From positions 448,001 through 512,000 of the forward strand of contig OZ243961.1 of the NCBI GenBank assembly GCA_965214605.1: a stretch of DNA of 64,000 nucleotides, given 5' to 3'. Under the pieces are notes generated by a model. It searched no databases, was not told the DNA's origin, and saw only the letters and a program-made list of their open reading frames with translations. Made by a program: the position numbers and the translations under genes. The DNA is from an uncultured Candidatus Binatia bacterium. GTDB taxonomy: Bacteria; Desulfobacterota; Binatia; Bin18. The first letter of the stretch is position 1; every line of letters begins with the position of its first letter. This document shows positions 853 to 60,046 of this stretch, in pieces.

Positions 853-1248
853 ATGGAAACTGCAGTCTTGTGTTCCGGTCTATTAGGTTTGTTGATCTTT
901 GTGCTCGGTTTTCTAGTTTCACTGACACGTGGACAAACGGAAACCGCGGTAGGAAGCAGTCCAGATCCCACGGACCGTTTGTATAAAATGGTCCGGGCAC
1001 ACGCCAATGCCACCGAATACGCACCCATGTTAGCCCTGCTCATGCTCATTGTGATGAGGGGCGAGACACCAGTGGCAGTCTGGGTGACCTGGACCATGAT
1101 CCTCGTCACCGTCTGTCGGTATCTCCACGCGATCGGCATGATCGTTAGTCCGACCTTGGAGAAACCCCATCCACTGCGTGTGGTGGGAGCTCTAGGAACC
1201 TATCTCGGCGGCGTTATTTTGTGCGTTGCGGCGTTTATGGCTGGCTAG
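853..1248 (+). CDS. MAPEG family membrane protein
   Basis: RAHANATEY motif and 3-4 hydrophobic helices; start moved to ATG 853 after RBS AAGGAG. Confidence 0.85.
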   Translation: METAVLCSGLLGLLIFVLGFLVSLTRGQTETAVGSSPDPTDRLYKMVRAHANATEYAPMLALLMLIVMRGETPVAVWVTWTMILVTVCRYLHAIGMIVSPTLEKPHPLRVVGALGTYLGGVILCVAAFMAG

Positions 1249-1341
1249 ACAGACCTCGCTCTCCCCTCCCTATTGTCCACAAGCACCGTATATCAAGTTT
1301 CCTGATCCATATTGGCCCAAACGAACAAGGAGGACTCGCCT

Positions 1342-2439
1342 ATGAACGCTGCCGTATTTTACAAACACAACGCCCCGCTCAGCGTCGAAGATATCCAAAT
1401 AGACGCACCCAAGCGGACCGAGGTTTTGGTCAAAGTCGCCGCCAGCGGTGTCTGCCACAGCGACCTGTCAGTCATGAACGGCAGCATCCCCTTTCCGACG
1501 CCGCCGGCCGTGCTCGGCCATGAAGGGGCCGGCATTGTCGAAGAGGTCGGCTCAGAGGTGACGGTCGTCGAGCCTGGCGATCATGTGATCCTGTCGTGGC
1601 GTCCCTCGTGCGGCCGGTGCGGCTATTGTGTCACGGGCCGGCCGCAGTTGTGTCAAACTAGCAACACCGAACTGTTCCAGGGCTACCTACTAGACGGCAC
1701 CTCACGGCTGCATAAAGGCGATACCGAGATCAAACACTTCACCGGGGTCTCGTCCTTTGCCGAATACGCGGTAGTGCCTGACAGCGGGGTGGTCAAAATT
1801 CGTTCTGACGTACCGCTTGAAGCGGCGGCCTTGGTTGGCTGCGGAGTTATGACCGGGGTCGGGGCGGCCATTAACACGGCCAAGGTTGAGCCCGGCACCA
1901 GCGTGGTTGTCATCGGCTGCGGCGGTGTAGGTCTGAACACGATTCAGGGCGCGCTTCTCGCTGGAGCCGAGAAAATTATTGCCGTTGACCTCAATCCCTT
2001 TAAACTAGAGCTGGCAACTCAGTTCGGAGCGACCCATTGCGTCAATCCCCAAGATGGCGATCCGGTCAGTCAGGTGCTCGACCTAACCGACAGCCTGGGA
2101 GCTGACTATGCGTTTGAGGTTATTGGCCGCTCGGATACCGCGGTCCAGGCGTATAATTCGATTCGGCCCGGCGGCACCGCGGTGATCGTTGGTGTGGCCA
2201 AACCCGACGATATGATGACCATCCCGACTGTCTCATTGTTACAGGAAAAAACCCTCAAAGGCTCTATCTACGGCTCGGCCCGCCCCAGTGTCGATATGCC
2301 CCGTCTGCTTGACCTATACACGAACAAGAAGCTCAAGCTCGACGAGTTGGTCTCACACCGGATCGAGCTCAAAGACATCAACGAGGCATTTGAATGGATG
2401 GAGAGGGGCGAGGTCGCCCGGAGTGTCATTATGTATTAA
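1342..2439 (+). CDS. Zn-dependent alcohol dehydrogenase (MDR, class III-like)
   Basis: GVCHSD, GHEGAG, structural Zn CxxCxxCx7C, GCGGVG; RBS AGGAGG before ATG 1342. Confidence 0.95.
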   Translation: MNAAVFYKHNAPLSVEDIQIDAPKRTEVLVKVAASGVCHSDLSVMNGSIPFPTPPAVLGHEGAGIVEEVGSEVTVVEPGDHVILSWRPSCGRCGYCVTGRPQLCQTSNTELFQGYLLDGTSRLHKGDTEIKHFTGVSSFAEYAVVPDSGVVKIRSDVPLEAAALVGCGVMTGVGAAINTAKVEPGTSVVVIGCGGVGLNTIQGALLAGAEKIIAVDLNPFKLELATQFGATHCVNPQDGDPVSQVLDLTDSLGADYAFEVIGRSDTAVQAYNSIRPGGTAVIVGVAKPDDMMTIPTVSLLQEKTLKGSIYGSARPSVDMPRLLDLYTNKKLKLDELVSHRIELKDINEAFEWMERGEVARSVIMY

Positions 2440-2452
2440 AAGACCACACACC

Positions 2453-3892
2453 ATGGCGCATGCACAATCCACTCCGTCACAAGACCTCGATTCTCCGGTT
2501 CAGCACAAACTGCCCGTCGTTGCTATTGTTGGACGGCCGAACGCTGGAAAATCAACGTTTTTCAACCGGTTGAGTCATGATCGTAAAGCCGTGGTGAACG
2601 CCAGCCCCGGAGTGACCCGGGACCGGAATTTTGTGCGGGCTGCGTGGCGGGACCGACAGTTTGTCTTGGTCGATACCGGCGGTATTGACCCCACCGAGAC
2701 CGAGCGGATTGTCGGCCGCGTTCAGCAACAAACTCAGTTGGCGATTACCGAAGCTGACGCGATCATTTTTCTGTTTGATGGCCGCGAGGGCCTCAACCCG
2801 GCCGATGCCGAGGCCGTAGATCTGTTGCGGCGCAGCCAGAAGCCGGTCTTGTTTGCCGTGAACAAGATTGACAGCCCACAACACACGGCTCACGTGAGCG
2901 ACTTTTCCTCGCTAGGCGTTCATCCCTTATATCCGATTTCGGCCGCCCATGGCCTGGGGATAAGCGACCTTCTTGACGGGCTGACTGAGGACTGGGAGCG
3001 CGCGACATCTCATCTTTTGCAGCAGGCCACGGACACAACCCGCCACACTCATCCTCCCCTCTCAGTTGCTATTATCGGTCGTCCCAACGTTGGAAAATCT
3101 TCTTTACTCAATAGACTCGTTGGCTTTGAGCGCTCGATCGTTGATGCCACCCCCGGCACCACCCGGGACGCCATTGATAGCCTGATCGACTGGCACGGCC
3201 GTCCTATTCGATTAGTCGATACGGCCGGCGTTCGCCGCCGCTCCCGCATTCATGAACAGATCGAACAGGCCAGCGTATTGATCGCCCTCAGAGCTGTTGA
3301 GCGGGCGGAGGTGTGTTTGCTGGTCATAGATGCCGTGCAAGGCATGACTGACCAAGACGCCCGGTTAATTCACTACGCCTGGGACCGGGGTCGGGCGCTA
3401 GCGCTCATTGTTAATAAATGGGATTTAGCTCCGTCCAACCACAAAAATATGACTCGCTATGAGGAGCACCTGCGCCAACAGTTTGCCGTTACTCTGCCCC
3501 TACCAATAGTCTTTGTGTCCGCGCTCACCGGGGCCCGGATCACTGCCCTGCTCCCCCTGATCGAACAGCTTTCCGACGCCCACGCCACGCAACTCCCGAC
3601 CGTCCAATTAAACCGCTACTTGCAAGAATGGACCAAGTTGAACCCACCTCCCACCTATAGGGGCAGAACTCCCCGCTTTTTTTACATCGCTCAAGTGTCG
3701 GTCAAACCGCCGGTCATCGCCATCTATACCAGCGCTCCCCAGGCCGTCCCCAGAGGCTATGGGCGCTATATTGAAAATCAGCTCCGCTCACACTTTGCCC
3801 TGAGCGGTATCCCGCTCAGACTAAGCTTTCGTACTCGGCGCAAAGAACGCAAGACCAGAGCAGGACCAAAAAGAAGAGCCCCAAACGACTAG
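2453..3892 (+). CDS. der: Ribosome biogenesis GTPase Der (EngA)
   Basis: Two G domains (GRPNAGKS/DTGG/NKID and GRPNVGKS/DTAG/NKWD) plus a KH-like C-terminus. Confidence 0.97.
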   Translation: MAHAQSTPSQDLDSPVQHKLPVVAIVGRPNAGKSTFFNRLSHDRKAVVNASPGVTRDRNFVRAAWRDRQFVLVDTGGIDPTETERIVGRVQQQTQLAITEADAIIFLFDGREGLNPADAEAVDLLRRSQKPVLFAVNKIDSPQHTAHVSDFSSLGVHPLYPISAAHGLGISDLLDGLTEDWERATSHLLQQATDTTRHTHPPLSVAIIGRPNVGKSSLLNRLVGFERSIVDATPGTTRDAIDSLIDWHGRPIRLVDTAGVRRRSRIHEQIEQASVLIALRAVERAEVCLLVIDAVQGMTDQDARLIHYAWDRGRALALIVNKWDLAPSNHKNMTRYEEHLRQQFAVTLPLPIVFVSALTGARITALLPLIEQLSDAHATQLPTVQLNRYLQEWTKLNPPPTYRGRTPRFFYIAQVSVKPPVIAIYTSAPQAVPRGYGRYIENQLRSHFALSGIPLRLSFRTRRKERKTRAGPKRRAPND

Positions 3893-51645: not shown

Positions 51646-52045
51646 GATTTGCCGGACACGGAACGTCATGCCTTGATCAAGACTCGTGTCGGCCAGGGGG
51701 GTTCAGAAACGCGCAAGTGAATTACTGAGGAGAATGCGCAGCTAAGGCAAGCCTTGCTGAGCGCCTCCCACATCAAGCCTTGGTCACAATCATCACCTAC
51801 GGAGCGCTCATGCCTCTCCAGCGGTTTGCTGCTATCCCTGGGCATCGACGCCTGCTTTGATGCCGGTTTCGTAAGCTTTGACAGCGAGGGCAAGATTCTG
51901 ATATCGACCCAATTGAGCCAGTGAGGACCTGTGGGCAATATGTTTACACTCCGAGATGCGATTGTCCAGGATCGAACCGGAGCACGGAAAGTATCTCGCT
52001 TATCACCGTGACCATGTTTGCCGAGAAAGCTGGCGGCCAGTTTAG
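51646..52045 (+). pseudogene. Degraded HNH endonuclease (HNH_2, restriction-nuclease-like); the 5' part probably extends toward ~51200
   Basis: Fragments DTERHALIKTRVGQG / FRNAQVNY*GECA / LLSASHIKPWS..SPTER....GLLL...DACFDAGFVSFD.EGKILIS / YLAYHRDHV, with frameshifts and stops. Confidence 0.85.
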
Positions 52046-52321
52046 AAGACTAAACCTGTAAATGCAGGAGAAGGTTGGTGCAAATCAACTTTCAGAGCAT
52101 CCAGACATTTTCACGCAAAGTGAAAGACCTCAGTCCGTACAGCTGCCCAGTGAGGCCTTTGCCTTTGTTAGCCCCCAAGAGGCGCAGCCCTCAGTCCGTA
52201 CAGCTGCCCAGTGAGGTATCTGTAATCAGGAGGCCGTCGTATGCGGAAAGCCGTGATGGAAAGCGTGGCATGGCGGCGGGAACGGGTTCTCTCGTCCAGT
52301 TCCAAGGATCGCGACTGAGGG
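52040..52321 (+). ncRNA. Candidate structured non-coding RNA or leader upstream of the giant NTPase
   Basis: Continuous run of hairpins with G-U pairs and GCAA/GCAAA loops, read by eye; not assigned to a known family. Confidence 0.4.
52128..52216. repeat. Two identical 28-bp direct repeats separated by 33 bp
   Basis: CCTCAGTCCGTACAGCTGCCCAGTGAGG at 52128-52155 and 52189-52216; each copy has CCTCA/TGAGG inverted ends. Confidence 0.95.
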
Positions 52322-52441: not shown

Positions 52442-55400
52442 GTGGAACCTTGGCCAATTTCGACCTTGAACGAGACTCTGCAGGCAGACCGCCGTGAAGC
52501 AGTCGTGAGAGAGGTTCTCGGACATTACAAGCAAGTTTCGCCAGCTACCAGCCAACGGCTAGAGAGAACATTCCGAAACCATCTGGAATTAAGGGGCTTT
52601 CGGGACCCAATGCAGGCGCCGGTCGGCCATCTGGCTCGGGAAGTTGCCAGAAGACTATTTCATTTCCAGGCTGTCGTAAAAGCCGTTCTGCTTGCCTGGT
52701 TGGAAATACGACAGAACCTGTTCGAGATCCTGTCCGATTTCCTGGATAACCGAGAGATTCCTCTGGCAGGACCTTCTGATCTGCCGGACGTGGTCGAGGC
52801 ATTTCAAGGCCAATTCACAGGCTTCGATGAGGATGACGTCGTTCTCATGCTGCATTGCATCAAGGCTTTCGAGAAACCGATTCGACCGATAGAGGAAACA
52901 ATGCCCGAAGAGCAACCTATCACGAAATGGCAGCAATGGCTTGAAGAACTGGAGGCGTTACCTTCGGATTCGCCAGAATGGGAAACAGACAGAACTTCGG
53001 CGTTTATCGAAGCCGTTCGGCAACTTTCGGAAATCAAACTTCAGGAACGGGAAGCGCCCCGCGAACGGTTGCGGATTGCCCTTGCCGCATTGGCGGATCA
53101 GCCAGACGATATCCTCACCTATTTCGGTATCGGTGCTGTCTCTGGCTGGACGGCAGATAAATGTGAACTATCGGAAGCTGAGGTTTTAGAAAATCAGGTC
53201 ACGGAGCTCAATGACGCCCTTGCCAGACACCGGGAGCTCGGCCATCAACCGGCTGCCTCCGAAGTGCACGAAAACAGACGCCGCCGTGATGAACTGACGG
53301 CTCTGGAAGATACCATTCTGGGGTCATACGACAGCTTATCCACTATTTTCGGAACACCACCGTCTGATGACCCGCCATCCGAACCGAATGAAAGGTCGCG
53401 GAAGGAGGAAACGCTTCGGAAAGAAACGGCTCCGACCGATTCAGATGGTTCGTCTTCCGGATCGCGGGAAGCGGAAACCAGGGAGGGAGATTCGGAGCCT
53501 GACCAGGCCTTGCAGACACCATCCCTTGTGGACGCGCGAGAGACGGGGATTAATAGGTCAGCGGAAGCTGGAACTTCCGGGGTCTGCCTTTCGTCAGGAG
53601 AGAAAAACAACGCTCCGCCAGAGGAAGCGGCCGTTCAGGACGAGGTTATTTCAGAGTTGTCGTCAGACCTGCACTCATCCCAGGAGGTCGCCACTCTCCT
53701 TGAAGTCGATGAGCGCGACCAGCTCTGGCATGCCCTGTTATGGGCACTTGTCGCCGAGGATGACTTGCCGGGTGCTTACTGGCTGGCACGATCGCTCAAC
53801 GCCTCCGGACGCCGCTCACCGATCCCTGACTACGTGCTCAAGGCAGCTCAGGGCGCACGCTGGCTGGCGTCTGGTGACGAGGAAAGGTTGGTCTCCGACC
53901 TGCTCGACATAGCCAAGGCTGGCCAGCCAAGTTCCGACGATGTCCAGGCAATGATCGGACTGGCAGGATCTCTACGTGCTGCTCTGATTGCCCCTCGCAG
54001 TGGCATGATAAGTTGGCTGAAAGTTCCTTCCTGCTGTCCCGAACTGCATGAGCTGGTTGGCACGGTCAAGGAGTTTGCCGAGTTGAACATCGTTCTCCTG
54101 CCGGAAGCCTTGGACAGAGTTGCTGGCGTGGAACAGCAGGAAGCCACTTTGGGCAAGGTCGTTCGCGATGCCCGGCAGTGGCTGCGTGAGACACCAAGCC
54201 AGCGCTCCACCCACAAGCGCGCCTCCAAAGTCTGGCAACACCTTGTGGGTCCGAGAGGAGAATTGCGCAAGATGCTTCTTCCGGTCGGCGAAGACCGTCG
54301 CAACGAAGCGCAGATCGTGAAAGAGCTGCTTGAGCAATGGGAACAGGAAACCCATATCTCGGACCGGATCCATCAAATTGACCGCCAATTGGCTGGCAAG
54401 AGACCACGACGACCCATCAATAGGGCAATACACAAGAAGCTGGTCCGAGACGTCAAGGATGCCTGTCGGCTTGCGCGTCAGTGGTGGGAGCAAGGAAATC
54501 GTTTGTACGAGACCAGGACGCGAGGAGACTGGCGGTCTGGCCAGGTGGACCGGCTGCGCGACCGTGTCCATAAGGCACTGCCCCGGGCAGAGGCAGCTCT
54601 TGAGCAATTGAGTCAACGTGATCAGTCCGCGCCAGTGGAAGCTGCAGCGCTTTGCCTGAGACGAGCCTTGCGGCAGTTAGACGAGACGTTGCACCTGCAG
54701 GCCGTAGAAGGTGCGCTGGGCACGTACGCGTGGGAATGGTGCACGTCCGATGCCGAGAATCTTTCCACCGCTCTGAGTCGCCGCCTCTTGTGGTTACCCG
54801 AACTTTCCCTGGACGATGAAGGGCAGCCGTTTGATGAAATTCATGTTGCTACACCTTTGCGGGAAGCCTGTGCCGGGAAGCGGGATCTGCGTACCGCATT
54901 CAAGGGCTGGCTGCAAAGACAAGACTACCGCTTTATCAAGATCCTTTTGAGCGCTATGCGTAGTGAGGGCGACGAGCCTCGGGTGGATGAGTTGTCCAGC
55001 CTCTATCAGGAAGCCCTGGATGGTTCACGGGCAGTCTTGGGTGAGCACCTGAACAGGACCGACCAGGAAATTGAGCAGGCTGTTGTGGATGGCATCATCG
55101 GGGAAGAACGTTCCGAGTACAACGCCATCGTCGTCTCTGTAGGTTCGAAGGAAGTTCTGAATTTCCCCCCAGAGTTCAAAAGTCTCGAAGAGGTGCATGA
55201 GCGTCTTGCCGACGCGCGCAAGGAGCGCTTGGAGGAATTGCGACAGACGTGGAAGAGCTTGGAGAAAAGGCTTGACGAATCCGACATCACACCTGAGAGA
55301 AGGGAGGTCTTCAAAGAGCGGATTTCAAGAGAGTTAACAGGTGAAGACACACGGGTCGTCGAGGAACGAATAGCCCAGCTCGAAGAGGTGTTGCATCTTG

Positions 55401-58252
55401 GTGATGATGCGGGAGAGATCTTTTCCAGGGCGAGTGCACCAACGCGTGACGTGCTGGCCGAATTCAAGGAGCGGGCACCAAGAATTGCACAGTGGTTCGA
55501 GCAGGCGAAGGGTCTGCAGGCAATCGTCAGAGACATTGAAAGGGCACCAAGTCGCCATCTTGGCGGGACCAATTTTAAGAGAGTACCGAAACCTCGACGA
55601 GATGAGGCGGCCAGAGCGGTTACTGCGTGGCGTCTCCTGAAACAGCAAGGACGAAAGGGAGACAGTTTAGAGCCCTTGGTCGTCCTGCTGCTGGGCTACC
55701 TTGGTTTTGCGGACGCGCAGTGCCGGATTGCGAATAGGGGTGAGGACTGGCTCCACGCAAGCGCTTCGATGTCGGCCAGCGAGGACTTGGTAAAGTCAGT
55801 CCCTCAGTTCGGTTCACAGGCACAAGGACATTACGAGGTGATCTGTCTTTGGGAGCGTCCGGGAGCAGAAGTGCTTGCAGCACGTCTGCGAGAGTTGCGG
55901 CTGACCATGCGTAATGTGTTAGTGTTGTATTTGGGTCGGCTGACAACGACGCAGCAACGCGACGTCGCCCGCACCTGTCGTGAGCGTGGTTTGGCAATAG
56001 CTATCCTAGATGAAACCCTCCTCCTATTTCTCGCTCCAGAGCGGGATGCGCGCCTCCCTGTTTTCCTGCACTGTGCCCTGCCGTTCACAGCGTTGAATCC
56101 CTATTCGCCTTTTCAAGCGGGAGACGTGCCTCCAGAGATGTTCTACGGTCGGGAACAAATGATCCGAGAACTGCAGAGCCAGACCGGAAGCTGTCTCGTG
56201 TATGGTGGGAGGCAGTTGGGCAAGTCTGCTCTGCTTCGTCATGTGGAACGGCAGTTTCACCGTCCAGAGCAAGGCCAGTTTGCATGGGTTGAAGACATGA
56301 AGCTGATTTTCGACCCCAAAGCAGGAAAGGAGTCGACCCACGTCTGGCAAGTGTTGCAGGAAGGATTCAAACGGAAAGGCTTGCTGCCGCCAAGCGTAAG
56401 AACGAATAACCCTGACAAGATTGCCCGGCATATTGATGACGCCATGAAGCAGGAGCCTCACCGGCGTGTGATAGTCATGTTTGATGAGGCAGATGATTTC
56501 CTTGATTACGACGCCAGTGATCGCTTCCGAGTGGTTTTGAAGTTGCGGGAATTGATGTCGGCTACCCAGCGTCGTTTCAAAATAGTCTTTGCGGGCCTTC
56601 ACAATGTGCAACGTTTCCAAGGCATTCCGAATCAGCCATTGGCGCATTTTGGGGCTCCAATACAGGTCGGACCGTTGGAACCTAGGGCTGCGCAGGAGTT
56701 GGTACAAGAACCCCTAAGCATTCTGGGCTATCGCTTCGCCGATGATGCCAACGTGCTCAGAATACTGTCATACACCAATTATCACCCGGGTCTGATTCAG
56801 ATATTCTGCCAAGAGCTTCTGAAGCGGCTGCACAGACGGACGGACAGGTCCCTGCCTCCCTATGCGATTGAACAGAACGATGTGGAGGACGTGTACCGTC
56901 TGCCTGACGTTCGTGAACGCATCCGGGAGCGATTCGACTGGACACTCGCGTTGGATCTCCGTTACCAGGCCATTGCTTGGGCGATGATTTTCGACCAGAT
57001 GGGGATGGAGAAAGGCAGAGACTACACGTCGGTGTATCCGCTCGGGGAGATTCTGGAACTCGTGCGCTATTGCTGGCCTCAAGGCTTTGAGGGCATGACT
57101 TCCGATCAGTTGCGGAGCCTTCTTGGTGAGTTGTGCGGCTTGGGGGTGCTTGTACGTAATGGAGATGGACACTATCGCCTTCGGAGTCCCAACCTGGTTC
57201 GCTTGATGGGAACAGAAACAGACATTGAAAACCGCCTGGCCGAACTTTCCGACAAGAAACTGCCGGGTCCGTTCGATGCGGATAACCATCACGCTCCACT
57301 TGACGACGAAGCACGGGAATACAGTCCACTGAGCTATGCCCAGGATCGAAGCCTGATACCGCAGCATTTCGGTGTAGGAGTCATAGGTGCGTCGGAAGCA
57401 ACCGGACTTTCCACCCTTTCAGAGGCCTTTGGCCGTTACGTCTCCGGAGATTCTGCAGAGGGAATATACGCAGAAATTCCCTCGGACATCATGGATGGGG
57501 ACAGCCTAAACAGGTGGCTGGATAAGCATTTGCAGACGTACAAGGGACGCGAACGTCTTGTTGTCTGTTACAGACCCCCGGAGAAGGCCTGGGACAATTT
57601 GGGAAACCTGGTCGACTCCGCCTTGAAATTCTGCAGGCGTCATCAGTCACGCAGTGGCAAGAGATGGCTGAGGATGTTGTTTCTCTTTGATCCACCGACG
57701 ACTTGGGCTTGGCTGTCGCTCCCTCATGAGCAGCGCGAAAAGTTGGAAAATCATATGGATGCCGTGGTCTGGCCACATCTCTGGAATCTCAGTGGGATAC
57801 GCCAGCGACTGTCCCAGCACAACAAGATGGATTCGGAAGAAGTATGTCGATTTGTCTTGGAGGCGACGGGCGGGTGGCCCTTGTTGCTGGGCGAATTGTT
57901 CAAGCGGTGTCGTGCGGAGGACGACCCGCGTCCTTCTGCCAAAGCCATCGGTGAGGAAGTGGCAGGGTCCGACTCAGCCTTGGGTCGGCAATTCCGTGTT
58001 TCGCTAGGCTTGGACATCAACGAGGAGGTACGCCGTGTCTGGGAGTTTGTTCGTCGAGAAGACCAAGTGCCCGCTGAATGGATAAATCCCGACATGGTCG
58101 GCAGTGAATCTATCCTGAAGGCAGAAGTCTGTAAGAGCGCCGTCGAATACCTCCAGTGGATGGGATGTCTCTCGATACATCGTGACATAGGTTCAGCAGA
58201 GGCAATGGTTTCAGCAGAGCCAACGGTGAAGAGAGTCATGTCATCGCCATGA
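52442..58252 (+). CDS. Giant (1936 aa) P-loop NTPase, STAND/AAA-like, putative defence/conflict protein
   Basis: MFYGRE, Walker A GGRQLGKS, Walker B VIVMFDEAD, IVFAG strand, NYHPGLIQ; long helical N-terminal half. Confidence 0.85.
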   Translation: MEPWPISTLNETLQADRREAVVREVLGHYKQVSPATSQRLERTFRNHLELRGFRDPMQAPVGHLAREVARRLFHFQAVVKAVLLAWLEIRQNLFEILSDFLDNREIPLAGPSDLPDVVEAFQGQFTGFDEDDVVLMLHCIKAFEKPIRPIEETMPEEQPITKWQQWLEELEALPSDSPEWETDRTSAFIEAVRQLSEIKLQEREAPRERLRIALAALADQPDDILTYFGIGAVSGWTADKCELSEAEVLENQVTELNDALARHRELGHQPAASEVHENRRRRDELTALEDTILGSYDSLSTIFGTPPSDDPPSEPNERSRKEETLRKETAPTDSDGSSSGSREAETREGDSEPDQALQTPSLVDARETGINRSAEAGTSGVCLSSGEKNNAPPEEAAVQDEVISELSSDLHSSQEVATLLEVDERDQLWHALLWALVAEDDLPGAYWLARSLNASGRRSPIPDYVLKAAQGARWLASGDEERLVSDLLDIAKAGQPSSDDVQAMIGLAGSLRAALIAPRSGMISWLKVPSCCPELHELVGTVKEFAELNIVLLPEALDRVAGVEQQEATLGKVVRDARQWLRETPSQRSTHKRASKVWQHLVGPRGELRKMLLPVGEDRRNEAQIVKELLEQWEQETHISDRIHQIDRQLAGKRPRRPINRAIHKKLVRDVKDACRLARQWWEQGNRLYETRTRGDWRSGQVDRLRDRVHKALPRAEAALEQLSQRDQSAPVEAAALCLRRALRQLDETLHLQAVEGALGTYAWEWCTSDAENLSTALSRRLLWLPELSLDDEGQPFDEIHVATPLREACAGKRDLRTAFKGWLQRQDYRFIKILLSAMRSEGDEPRVDELSSLYQEALDGSRAVLGEHLNRTDQEIEQAVVDGIIGEERSEYNAIVVSVGSKEVLNFPPEFKSLEEVHERLADARKERLEELRQTWKSLEKRLDESDITPERREVFKERISRELTGEDTRVVEERIAQLEEVLHLGDDAGEIFSRASAPTRDVLAEFKERAPRIAQWFEQAKGLQAIVRDIERAPSRHLGGTNFKRVPKPRRDEAARAVTAWRLLKQQGRKGDSLEPLVVLLLGYLGFADAQCRIANRGEDWLHASASMSASEDLVKSVPQFGSQAQGHYEVICLWERPGAEVLAARLRELRLTMRNVLVLYLGRLTTTQQRDVARTCRERGLAIAILDETLLLFLAPERDARLPVFLHCALPFTALNPYSPFQAGDVPPEMFYGREQMIRELQSQTGSCLVYGGRQLGKSALLRHVERQFHRPEQGQFAWVEDMKLIFDPKAGKESTHVWQVLQEGFKRKGLLPPSVRTNNPDKIARHIDDAMKQEPHRRVIVMFDEADDFLDYDASDRFRVVLKLRELMSATQRRFKIVFAGLHNVQRFQGIPNQPLAHFGAPIQVGPLEPRAAQELVQEPLSILGYRFADDANVLRILSYTNYHPGLIQIFCQELLKRLHRRTDRSLPPYAIEQNDVEDVYRLPDVRERIRERFDWTLALDLRYQAIAWAMIFDQMGMEKGRDYTSVYPLGEILELVRYCWPQGFEGMTSDQLRSLLGELCGLGVLVRNGDGHYRLRSPNLVRLMGTETDIENRLAELSDKKLPGPFDADNHHAPLDDEAREYSPLSYAQDRSLIPQHFGVGVIGASEATGLSTLSEAFGRYVSGDSAEGIYAEIPSDIMDGDSLNRWLDKHLQTYKGRERLVVCYRPPEKAWDNLGNLVDSALKFCRRHQSRSGKRWLRMLFLFDPPTTWAWLSLPHEQREKLENHMDAVVWPHLWNLSGIRQRLSQHNKMDSEEVCRFVLEATGGWPLLLGELFKRCRAEDDPRPSAKAIGEEVAGSDSALGRQFRVSLGLDINEEVRRVWEFVRREDQVPAEWINPDMVGSESILKAEVCKSAVEYLQWMGCLSIHRDIGSAEAMVSAEPTVKRVMSSP

Positions 58253-58350
58253 GGATTGTGCGTTCAGATACTCCCTTTCGCCTTCCAAGTGTTCAGAATT
58301 TCTTGGGCAGGCTGGTAGACGACCTTTCCAAGTTGAGAATAGAGCACTAG
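58249..58350 (+). pseudogene. 5' stub of a gene translationally coupled to the NTPase
   Basis: ATGA overlap; MRIVRSDTPFRLPSVQNFLGRLVDDLSKLRIEH* ends at the CTAG bordering the IS remnant. Confidence 0.6.
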
Positions 58351-58988
58351 AGATCGGGCTCTATCAGTTTCCCGGCTTCACCCCCTCCTGCCCAACAAGG
58401 TCCGAGGCGTCCCTTGCGTCGATGACCGAAAGGTCATCAGCGGCATCATCCACGTCATCCGATACGGCCCCTGATGTAGCGTGACGTACCCGCCTGCCAC
58501 GGGCCTCACAAGCCCCTCTACAACCGCTTCGTACGCTGGAGTCTTCGAGTGCACCTTCTAGGCCCTGGCTTCCGAAAGCACCGCTAATGAGACCGTCATG
58601 ATCGACGGCACGCATCTCAAGGACCTCGCAATGCTGCCCAGCCTGCTCGAAAAGAGGCTTTTGAGCGCGGCATCGGACACAGTCGAGGCGGCCTCACCTC
58701 CAAGCTCCACGCCGTCTGCGCCGGCGAGGGCAAGTCCATTGCTTTGCAGTGGACAGCGGGTCAGGTCAGCGACTACCTAGAGGCGGACACGCGGCTGCCG
58801 GAGGCCAAGGAGGCGGGGGGGTCTCCGACAGCGAGCTTTCCAAGCACCGCAATCTTATTGAACGCATGTTTGACACCCAAGCCTGCCCGCCGCATTACCC
58901 ACCCGGGACGACTGTTGTGCACCTACATGCTACAGTCCCATCTGCTAGGCTGCCACGGGTATCTTCTGGCTATGAGTCCTGATCCTAG
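58347..58988 (+). mobile_element. Degraded IS5-family (IS427-like) insertion sequence
   Basis: Transposase fragments PNKVRGVPCVDDRKVISGIIHVIR, GPHKPLYNRFVRWS, VMIDGTHLK, SRGGLTSKLHAVC, RNLIERMF, IFWL*; right end ATGAGTCCTGATCCTAG; CTAG at both ends. Confidence 0.88.
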
Positions 58989-59065
58989 AACGGTCTCCCT
59001 CGGCCTCTTGCATTTCTCTGACTAGGGGTTGATAAGACAGAAAACTCTCCGAGAAGGCTATCTCC

Positions 59066-60046
59066 ATGCAGTGTGGTCTTTTTTATCAGCTTCCGTGCGC
59101 ACCCGAGCAAGCGATACAGACCCGGTATCGACAAACCCTTGAGCAGATTGTGTATGCCGACGAACTCGGTTTTGACTCGGTCTGGCTAGCCGAAGCACAC
59201 TTTAACCCAAGCTTCTCGGTCATGCCCAGACCGCTGACCGTGGCCGCCGCCTTGGCGGGCCGGACCAAACGTATTCGACTCGGTATTGGCGTCAGCCAAC
59301 TGCCGCTCCATCATCCCTTACATGTTGCCGAAGAAGCTGCCACCGTTGATATGCTGAGCGACGGCCGCCTGGAGTTTGGGGCCGGCCGTGGAACCTGGAA
59401 TCAGAATTTTGAAACGTTCGGTATTCCCTGGGAGGAACGCAGCCAACGCCTTGAAGAAGCGCTGGATATTATCGAACAGGCCTGGACCAAGCCGCGTTTC
59501 TCTTATCACGGCCACTATTACGACTTTGACGCGGTCGAGGTTGTGCCCAAACCCCTCCAGCACCCTTGTCCGCCAATTCATATTGCCGCCAACAGCCCCA
59601 GCACGGCTATCTTCACCGCACGTCGTGGCTATCGGATGCTCATGGCCGCCCCTATTCATCCCTGGCCACACGAGTTTCTGACTCAGCTGAACCTCTACCG
59701 CGACACCTGCCAAGAAGTCCACGGTTCTCGGACTGCGGGTGGTGTATCGGCCCTGTTCTTCGTCTATCCAGGCGAGGATAAAACCGACGTACGTACTCAG
59801 GTGGCTGAAAGCCTCGCCCATCATCCGATCGGAGCCGGCCTCGACTACGCGGTGGCTGAAGAACGGATGGCGATCTACGGCCACCCGCGAGAGTGTATTG
59901 CCAAGATTCAGAGCATTCAGGCAAAAATTCAGTGTGACCAGCTCCTGTGCGCCCTCAATCCGGGCGGTCTGATTCCGCACGATAGGATGCTGACTGCCCT
60001 GCAGCGCTTCGCCAAAGAAGTCATGCCAGCCATACGAGACCTGTAG
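59066..60046 (+). CDS. LLM class flavin-dependent oxidoreductase
   Basis: GFDSVWLAEAHF, HPLHVAEE, GRLEFGAGRG. Confidence 0.9.
   Translation: MQCGLFYQLPCAPEQAIQTRYRQTLEQIVYADELGFDSVWLAEAHFNPSFSVMPRPLTVAAALAGRTKRIRLGIGVSQLPLHHPLHVAEEAATVDMLSDGRLEFGAGRGTWNQNFETFGIPWEERSQRLEEALDIIEQAWTKPRFSYHGHYYDFDAVEVVPKPLQHPCPPIHIAANSPSTAIFTARRGYRMLMAAPIHPWPHEFLTQLNLYRDTCQEVHGSRTAGGVSALFFVYPGEDKTDVRTQVAESLAHHPIGAGLDYAVAEERMAIYGHPRECIAKIQSIQAKIQCDQLLCALNPGGLIPHDRMLTALQRFAKEVMPAIRDL

Follow-up and report, generated by a model that had tools for sequence, protein, structure and literature searches.

A large STAND-like ATPase gene in a Candidatus Binatia genome and the stub of its putative HEPN partner: a candidate two-gene conflict system

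The big gene and the architecture of its product

The 64,000-nucleotide stretch of DNA analysed here (the window: positions 448,001 to 512,000 of contig OZ243961.1, assembly GCA_965214605.1, from an uncultured Candidatus Binatia bacterium) carries at 52442..58252, on the plus strand like all the window features described below, a GTG-initiated gene of 5.8 kb without an internal stop. Its product, of 1936 amino acids, is the likely sensor/ATPase subunit of a two-gene module. This gene (BIG, hereafter the big gene) belongs to a family in which a second gene, coding for a protein with a probable HEPN RNase domain, follows directly downstream; in the window only a stub of that partner gene survives. 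A first-pass annotation, made from the sequence alone, had described an intact STAND-like NTPase with no recognisable effector, lying between decayed neighbours, and had proposed it as the core of an uncharacterised multi-gene conflict system. The frame is indeed intact, with 1936 open codons and full-length homologues at 37-83% identity, and every motif quoted at the time was found: YEVICLW, VLVLYLG, AILDE, GGRQLGKS (residues 1255-1262), FDEAD (1347-1351), NYHP (1446-1449) and TGGWP (1809-1813). Homologues of 1925-1941 residues, 60-83% identical, align over 100% of the window protein, and both the start and the end of the gene are therefore correctly placed.

The N-terminal region (residues 1-1079; 52442..55678) is helical by eye, family-specific and presumed to be the sensor. 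Within it lies the acidic low-complexity linker noted earlier, which is seen in the translation at about residues 300-420 (53339-53701) and has the lowest conservation within the family alignment. The region gave no match in Pfam or among PDB sequences, residues 425-1080 returned nothing usable from the ESM Atlas, and a profile of the whole family against PDB sequences found nothing meaningful. The remainder of the protein (residues 1080-1936) was modelled with AlphaFold2 using the family alignment (pLDDT, the predicted local distance difference test score, 83.8). An alpha/beta domain of about 130 residues (1085-1215; 55694..56086), delimited by the secondary structure in the model and by column counts, shows the beta-alpha-beta elements expected from the earlier proposal of such a domain before the P-loop. 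Its conserved positions, in a 37-sequence family alignment with a mean column identity of 45% and 107 invariant columns, most dense at residues 1200-1650, are D1190 (37/37), E1138 (30/37) and E1191 (32/37, with D in the other five), together with R1139 and R1204. No fold could be assigned to it from the structure search or from the ESM Atlas (residues 1080-1218). A PD-(D/E)xK or TOPRIM identity, entertained from the strand order and the E/DE residues, was dropped, nothing having been tested.

The alpha/beta domain is followed by an ATPase module with a helical lid and a winged helix (residues 1219-1591; 56096..57214), delimited by structure matches and by Pfam AAA_22, with Walker A GGRQLGKS at 56204-56227 and Walker B VMFDEAD at 56474-56494. 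Compared by VIA-align, this module (model residues ~140-512) matched 2qen with Z 19.6 (323 residues, root-mean-square deviation, rmsd, 4.3) and 2fna with Z 18.7, about 320/350 residues being aligned with these two at rmsd 4.3-4.4. Plant NLR NB-ARC modules matched with Z 16-17 (model residues ~148-523), ORC/Cdc6 with Z ~16, MuB with Z 15.4, TnsC with Z 13.8-15.0 and BrxC with Z 13.8; the top Foldseek match of the model was Avs3 (8dgc; 2.1e-9). Sequence matches are weak. The generic AAA_22 alone exceeded its Pfam cut-off (residues 1246-1390, E 9.8e-7, 29.6 bits against 27); ATPase_2 (PF01637; E 0.0013, 19 against 33.2 bits), AAA_16 (23.4 against 32.6 bits) and the curated STAND models nSTAND6 (E 0.016, 15.6 against 27.7 bits) and nSTAND1 (18.3 against 27.1 bits) stayed below theirs, and NCBIfam gave no significant match to the window protein. 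As modelled, the module is of the ORC/STAND type with lid and winged helix, in agreement with the STAND-like NTPase first proposed; STAND and ORC-like AAA+ ATPases are inseparable with these comparisons. The Walker A motif is present in 110/110 family members of at least 1700 residues and DEAD in 105/110, and the GGRQLGKS and FDEAD columns are invariant in the 37-sequence alignment; by its motifs the ATPase is catalytically complete, with N1388 the putative sensor 1 and R1391 the putative arginine finger from their place after the fourth strand.

Behind the winged helix, residues 1640-1936 (57359..58249) form a further module of alpha/beta elements in the model, within which lies the TGGWP motif (57866-57880). 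This module has no Walker A lysine, and T1809, G1811 and W1812 are invariant. Since a second alpha/beta module is present, the model also matches two-ring AAA+ proteins, the Foldseek matches to ClpC and p97 covering both ATPase-like modules, and this supports the degenerate second NTPase module that had been suggested from the TGGWP motif.

A coupled partner gene and its predicted RNase domain

A scan of a genome contig collection returned a single relative of the big gene, in a record of an Entotheonella metagenome-assembled genome (MAG; L002; 60% identity). The big homologue lies there between def and fmt, which are normally adjacent genes, and is followed by a gene for 432 amino acids, the ATG of which overlaps the big-gene stop. 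A search for the family of this partner gave 115 matches, none of which carried a Pfam label; several were on contigs equal in length to those of big proteins, and in two named MAGs the locus tags of the two genes were adjacent. Using the family alignment, 80 metagenome loci were fetched, and their open reading frames (ORFs) were called and scored by hidden Markov models (HMMs) of both families. At least 600 bp follow the big gene in 72 of these loci, and in 70 of them the next gene downstream, in the same orientation, is a partner gene (~430 amino acids); the two loci without one (L063 and L083) have a truncated big gene. When near-identical loci were collapsed to 63 groups, the partner start was placeable in 50 of them; it overlaps the big-gene stop by 1-29 nt in 49/50, the overlap being the 4-nt ATGA or GTGA in 29. 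The pairwise identities of big and partner proteins correlate (r = 0.80; 860 pairs, 42 loci), which reflects joint inheritance of the pair and no more than that. No third gene is broadly kept, the largest further neighbour cluster, a SNF2/PLD helicase, occurring in 7 of ~80 loci. Thus, the big gene and its partner form a conserved, translationally coupled two-gene module.

In an AlphaFold2 model of the partner (pLDDT 90.8), residues 1-~300 adopt an AAA+/ORC/STAND-like fold, with Z ~10 to 2qen, ORC subunits, Cdc6 and TnsC and Z 8.5-8.7 to BrxC. The Walker A position is occupied by RSLLVLLP, and GxxxxGK[ST] is found in 0/109 full-length members; the N-terminal part of the partner is, on this model, a dead ATPase-like module. 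Residues ~298-431, helical in the model, hold the sole cluster of invariant polar residues of the protein: W315, R316, Q318, R330 and R400-N401-x-x-A404-H405. Of these, R400, N401, A404 and H405 are invariant in alignments of 44/44 and 46/46 partners, and Rx4H is present in 107/109, the exceptions being one truncated protein and one with Y for H. In the accessible part of a survey of HEPN proteins, the motif of the superfamily is given as Rx4-6H in which the R is followed by a polar residue, usually N, D or H; both R and H are described as required for activity in RNase L and PrrC (PMC3710099). The partner RNxxAH meets this definition. The Pfam model HEPN_Swt1 matched 20/44 partners (best E 2e-4), and RiboL-PSP-HEPN, DUF4145 and RNase 2-5A gave scattered matches in a few; the first partner examined had no HEPN match at E<=10. 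Fold searches with the whole partner were dominated by its N-terminal domain, and 2jpu alone (Z 7.4) covered residues 196-432. From its motif and the HMM matches, the C-terminal domain of the partner is a probable HEPN RNase domain.

In the window, an ATG at 58249 overlaps the big-gene stop (ATGA) and opens a frame (58249..58350) that begins MRIVRSDTPFRLPSVQNFLGRLVDDLS..., as the partner N-terminus does; codons 1-28 match the partner family, the similarity ends there, and a stop follows after 33 codons. The partner profile found its positions 1-28 alone at this place, with a weak score (E 0.21, 12 bits), and nothing elsewhere in the 99.99%-complete genome. In contigs of four public sequencing runs compared with 56500-59500, the parts covered had the truncated arrangement of the window, and none joined the big gene to an intact partner; 58217-58317 has no coverage in runs X5 and X6, and the absence of an intact partner from these contigs is no proof. 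With the partner reduced to a stub, the putative RNase arm is gone and the big gene is probably an orphan. The first-pass annotation was thus accurate in what it observed and right in kind in how it read it, but it missed a putative effector that is present in the family and lost here save for the stub: no recognisable effector holds for the big protein itself and not for the family, in which the HEPN-motif partner lies downstream.

Distribution, genomic context and the decayed islet

A word-indexed protein search with the big protein gave 280 matches. Among the best 120, many are full-length (about 1900-2050 amino acids; 37-83% identity). They carry the names of sources in six or more phyla, Entotheonellaceae, Chloroflexi, Blastocatellia, Armatimonadetes, Deltaproteobacteria, Desulfamplus and NC10 among them. 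An exhaustive HMMER search with residues 1-1079 alone matched 736 cluster representatives (clusters at 50% identity) at E<=1e-3, 257 of them at 1e-30; the best 150 of the 736 are collinear matches in proteins of the same size (about 1900-2050 amino acids) or in shorter, fragment-like ones. Because the matches listed are collinear, the N-terminal region is family-specific; no other architecture was seen to contain it. Within the host phylum, 101 genomes were sampled, and the one that carries the window is the only one with a true copy, two others giving weak partial P-loop matches; the distribution is thus patchy. A search of 50,697 phage records found no relative.

The surroundings of the pair were surveyed by a Pfam scan of 205 flanking ORFs (at least 150 amino acids, within 6.5 kb) from 49 non-redundant loci, three oversized ORFs having been dropped; selected flanking ORFs were also scanned with PADLOC, and the addition of L084 brought the loci to 50. 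Unmistakable defence genes lie within 6.5 kb of the pair in 21/50 loci, and suggestive neighbours (CHAT, WYL, SNF2, M78 with DUF4411 and the like) in 8/50, figures that derive from a classification of the gene families by hand, with no matched background control. The clear loci carry restriction-modification genes of type I, ISP or II, GmrSD, Dsr2, Druantia DruE/F/L, DndH-like genes, PglZ, DrmD/DrmE/DrmA-like genes, TIR-NB-ARC, Cas3/Cas7, KAP with Z1, or TOTE. In the Entotheonella record (L002, 38-6262) genes for a Type ISP restriction-modification enzyme and for a Dsr2 homologue (PADLOC 2e-168) immediately precede def, and at L052 the pair abuts Druantia genes. Most telling is one locus (L071), which reads HmaC (DUF499), DUF7680, HEC-01A, HEC-01B, HmaB (DUF1156 methylase), big gene, partner and HmaA (SNF2/PLD helicase), all on one strand with tiny gaps, so that the pair is embedded between HmaB and HmaA. 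This locus has a separate HmaC, and hence the pair is an insert and not the Hma system's own ATPase; profile-profile alignment (hhalign) of the partner with the N-terminus of that HmaC found nothing. Genes carried inside Hma systems often turn out to be defence systems, 7/9 candidates having protected according to the available part of a preprint in which none of HEC-01 to HEC-09 resembles the big/partner pair (bioRxiv 10.1101/2024.01.29.577857). These contexts support the multi-gene conflict system first proposed and narrow it to a two-gene module, many relatives of which are located in or embedded among defence genes. In a divergent subfamily (28-30% identity; L059, 5695-9743, and L060, 6654-14214) the pair is followed directly by PglZ, or by a DrmD-like SNF2 helicase and PglZ, and no methylase is visible on these contigs; they may represent a BREX-like variant with the big ATPase in place of BrxC.

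More distant relatives were found on plasmids, where tblastn matched the C-terminal half of the big protein in 26 records, at 27-37% identity. An Azospirillum oryzae plasmid (L092; NZ_CP054617.1, 2314-13754) codes for a protein of 3256 amino acids in which pPIWI_RE modules (pPIWI_RE_X, MID_pPIWI_RE and RNaseH_pPIWI_RE, at the N-terminus) are fused to the ATPase core of the big protein. The next gene, of 525 codons, aligned with the partner profile (hhalign probability 97.3%, E 1.9e-11, 324 columns); its product retains WRGQ and Rx4H (as RRGMAH) and adds an AAA_33 domain. As the fused core has its partner, the pairing is older than the present N-terminal region, and the heads are swappable. Comparable matches labelled 'RNaseH domain-containing' occur on Bradyrhizobium and Microvirga plasmids. 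On a Brasilonema plasmid (L093; CP030123.1, 5634-12503) the relative is followed by a SNF2/PLD helicase, and no separate partner was recognised; this protein, annotated with 2289 amino acids, starts with sigma-70 regions 1.2-4, which are either a real fusion or the result of a merged gene call.

Returning to the window, the decayed neighbours of the first-pass annotation are confined to the immediate flanks. Downstream, the partner stub runs into frame-shifted debris of an IS4/IS5-family transposase (insertion sequence, IS; 58343..59025), with fragments in three frames, one of which matches DUF4096 below the cut-off (E 8.9e-4) and the others of which we take, by eye, to be IS5. Upstream, the 1.3 kb before the big gene hold no credible gene apart from an HNH_2 endonuclease remnant of 67 codons (51721-51924; PF13391, E 6.3e-6, 26.4 bits against a cut-off of 21), which suggests that the islet once held another nuclease. 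Genes further out (SDR, enoyl-CoA hydratase, luciferase-like monooxygenase, MFS, PFK and a sigma-54 regulator) give full-length Pfam matches, and the ~8 kb from the SDR gene to the monooxygenase gene look like a decayed defence islet in which the big gene alone is whole. A second degraded IS4/5 copy, 68-83% identical, is present in the same genome (L087, about 1050-3016; contig C1, about 1.75 Mb). Both copies, the one in the window taken as 58343-60046, adjoin paralogous genes for luciferase-like monooxygenases, which would be better explained by an old duplication of the segment than by two insertions.

Two direct repeats of 31 nt (52125-52155 and 52186-52216; 97% identical, 61 nt from start to start) lie 226 nt before the start codon of the big gene. 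The pair resembles a one-spacer mini-CRISPR array and is unique in the genome. These repeats are probably the 'upstream RNA' of the earlier annotation. The gap that holds them had no Rfam match at E<=1, the repeat region folds with an unremarkable z of -2.2, and the search for sigma-70-like promoters upstream of the big gene found 0 where 0.6 were expected. In the one relative inspected by eye (L002), the 88-bp gap after def is without such repeats. Over the whole window, a tRNA search and Rfam found no tRNA and no RNA family.

Proposed mechanism, alternative explanations and known systems

Our interpretation, which we hold to be likely with a good deal of doubt still attached, is that the big gene codes for the large sensor/switch subunit of a conserved two-gene STAND-like/HEPN conflict system, the partner of which is a stub here, leaving the gene orphaned; the orphaning may be fresh, or the gene may be kept by a role that needs no partner. 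The two-gene module is probably an anti-phage system, and its family qualifies well as a candidate for a defence system that, though of a familiar overall type, is not yet described. In such a system the N-terminal region would recognise a trigger; trigger and ATP binding would then lead the ATPase-like modules of both proteins to assemble, and assembly would pair the HEPN domains, known examples of which act as dimers, and so switch on RNA cleavage. Cleavage of RNA would stop the growth of the infected cell (abortive infection). A more detailed picture, which we offer as a speculation with the balance well against it, makes the pair the portable output stage of a new family of immune machines: a dimer of heterodimers, each with one active and two dead modules (two of the three on the big protein, one on the partner), forming an ORC-like pseudo-hexamer that clamps two HEPN domains and carries interchangeable N-terminal sensing heads. 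Equally speculative is the extension of that picture in which the helical head senses a phage protein and the Argonaute-like pPIWI_RE head of the Azospirillum, Bradyrhizobium and Microvirga plasmids senses nucleic acid via a guide. The combination of Argonaute-type sensing, a STAND-type switch and a HEPN effector was not found in our literature search.

If the two-gene interpretation is true, the family is large and widespread, with at least 736 clusters at 50% identity by the sensor region and with source names from Acidobacteria, Chloroflexi, Armatimonadetes, NC10, Deltaproteobacteria and relatives of Entotheonella, and it was missed by the 2023 PADLOC models. It would then offer a clean test of an idea that exists on paper only, namely that dead STAND/AAA+ modules are adaptors that supply an active sensor ATPase with an effector; to judge by the pPIWI_RE-fused relatives, an Argonaute-like head may also drive the same output stage. 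For the host genome the conclusion is more modest: the island is a wreck, in which the remnant of an HNH gene, the stub of the partner and the debris of an IS surround a big gene that is most probably left over from the two-gene system and disarmed.

Several observations weigh against this interpretation. The HEPN assignment draws on a motif and on HMM matches below threshold, and profiles of the partner and of its C-terminal 160 residues found no HEPN protein among PDB sequences. BLASTP and hhalign detected no sequence similarity between the N-terminal module of the partner and the modules of the big protein. PADLOC-DB 2.0.0 (2023), which includes Avs, HEC and PDC candidates, matched 0/4 big proteins and 0/4 partners at 1e-5, and its best match to the window protein in a search at E<=1 (E 0.005, on a 50-residue stretch) was not significant. 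No defence neighbour, or housekeeping and unannotated genes alone, were found in 21/50 loci. The literature search found no experiments on any family member, and we infer all three of RNase activity, complex formation and phage defence for the pair. Finally, the big gene is unbroken over 5.8 kb beside 0.7 kb of IS debris with several frame breaks, and could be under selection without its partner, contrary to the simple view of a dead orphan. A complex prediction for residues 1210-1925 of the big protein of L002 with residues 1-280 of its partner scored 0.00, was run without controls and weighs neither way.

The last of the opposing points leads to an unlikely alternative, namely that the big protein works alone in this genome, the alpha/beta domain or another part being an effector or a nucleic-acid binder, and that selection has kept the gene after the loss of the partner. 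Of similarly low probability are its particular forms, such as a sensor that feeds another system or a regulator. Besides the intact frame, the window protein keeps all 107 family-invariant residues, in a column test that includes the window sequence and does not date the partner loss; the acidic residues D1190, E1191 and E1138 of the alpha/beta domain are conserved; and L063, L083 and the Brasilonema plasmid relative are without a recognisable separate partner. However, the big gene is truncated in both L063 and L083, a translationally coupled partner is present in 70/72 loci, and the alpha/beta domain matched no fold or family in our searches. The contrast with the IS debris also loses force if the debris predates the deletion that cut the partner, as it may, given the degraded twin beside the paralogous monooxygenase gene elsewhere in the genome.

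Mobile DNA provides two further explanations of the pair. That it is an addiction module, akin to toxin-antitoxin systems, or has some other selfish function, with the ATPase restraining a HEPN toxin, we regard as improbable. The patchy distribution would fit such a role, as would the integrases, transposases, type IV secretion system (T4SS) and relaxase genes near some copies (L013, L008, L063, L075, L079 and L093), the more distant relatives on plasmids, and the frequency of HEPN domains among the toxins of toxin-antitoxin pairs that is reported in the accessible part of PMC3710099. However, no copy turned up in the 50,697 phage records, and the embedding in an Hma system and the adjacency to restriction-modification, Dsr2, Druantia and CRISPR-Cas genes are a signature proven useful for defence-gene discovery; addiction also overlaps mechanistically with defence. 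We know of no precedent for an antitoxin of about 1900 amino acids. Very improbable indeed is a role of the ATPase as a target selector of the TniB/MuB/TnsC kind or as an ORC-like DNA-loading factor of a mobile element: the structural likeness to MuB, TnsC and ORC/Cdc6 described above and the PF05621 (TniB) label on 4 of the best 120 homologues are set against the absence of any transposase or replication gene conserved beside the pair, against best structural matches to PF01637-type ATPases and NLR modules with the winged helix included, and against a conserved partner that bears an RNase motif and no transposition function.

The two-gene STAND-like/HEPN interpretation has its closest concept in print, in our analysis, in the nSTAND2 operon, predicted in silico as a mobile operon of two STAND-type proteins, one with an active module and the other with eroded NTP-binding motifs and a fused variable effector, mostly GT4 or a HEPN RNase, the pair being proposed to form a hetero-multimeric ring (Kaur, Iyer, Burroughs and Aravind, 2021; PMC8195603, in the part available). 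The family studied here likewise combines an active STAND gene with an inactive STAND module fused to a putative HEPN effector, and by eye '..GRSxLLLVPQGCDE..' in the inactive module of that paper resembles 'RRSLLVLLPTGIDP' in our partner (PMC8195603 supplement, in part). The active subunit differs in being about 1900 amino acids long and in having both an additional dead module and an N-terminal region specific to its family. The pair would thus work like nSTAND2, but the Pfam nSTAND2 model PF20702 lends membership no support: it had no match at E<=10 in the window genome and a single match in that of L002 (E 0.38, 2.3 Mb from the pair), in six-frame searches with a loose pre-filter that could miss a very weak match. 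We use the naming of the search tool, relative to which the accessions of nSTAND1 and nSTAND2 are reversed in PMC13449251. Six motif strings of the big/partner family were absent from those supplements of PMC8195603 that were searched, and the literature search returned no paper on the family and none on the function of nSTAND2.

Avs (AVAST) proteins and other prokaryotic STAND (NLR-like) anti-phage sensors resemble the big protein in that a STAND-like P-loop ATPase with lid and winged helix is linked to a sensor region of great size; they also share a defence-island context and, presumably, activation by oligomerisation. In Avs, the effector is on the same polypeptide and the sensor is C-terminal, whereas here the large non-ATPase region is N-terminal and the putative effector is on a separate protein that has a dead ATPase-like module of its own; neither protein was matched by a PADLOC Avs model. 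Like the pair, HmaC and BrxC (DUF499) are ORC/Cdc6-like AAA+ ATPases of defence systems, and some relatives of the pair are followed by SNF2/PLD helicases or PglZ. However, there is no DUF499 match, and a methylase, helicase or PglZ lies beside the pair in a minority of the 72 loci (clusters of 4-7). Proteins of the Ava_2192 type join a Swt1-like HEPN domain to a DUF499-type ATPase in restriction-modification-like operons (PMC3710099, as far as accessible). PrrC and RloC are also NTPase-controlled HEPN-type RNases, often within restriction-modification loci and triggered by infection (PMC3710099; bioRxiv 10.1101/2024.01.29.577857; both in part); they are single polypeptides with ABC-type ATPases, whereas the pair has its AAA+/STAND-type ATPase and its putative HEPN domain on separate proteins. 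From Avs, from the HEPN-DUF499 fusions and from PrrC and RloC alike, the pair thus departs in its order of domains and in having the presumed sensor and effector on two proteins. The archaeal PF01637 'ATPase_2' proteins (2qen, 2fna) give the best structural match to the active module, but they are stand-alone proteins of ~350 amino acids, and the Pfam score of the window protein is far below the cut-off. A 2026 preprint, in the part available, sorts STAND proteins into 589 clades (bioRxiv 10.64898/2026.01.04.697583), one of which may be that of the big protein.

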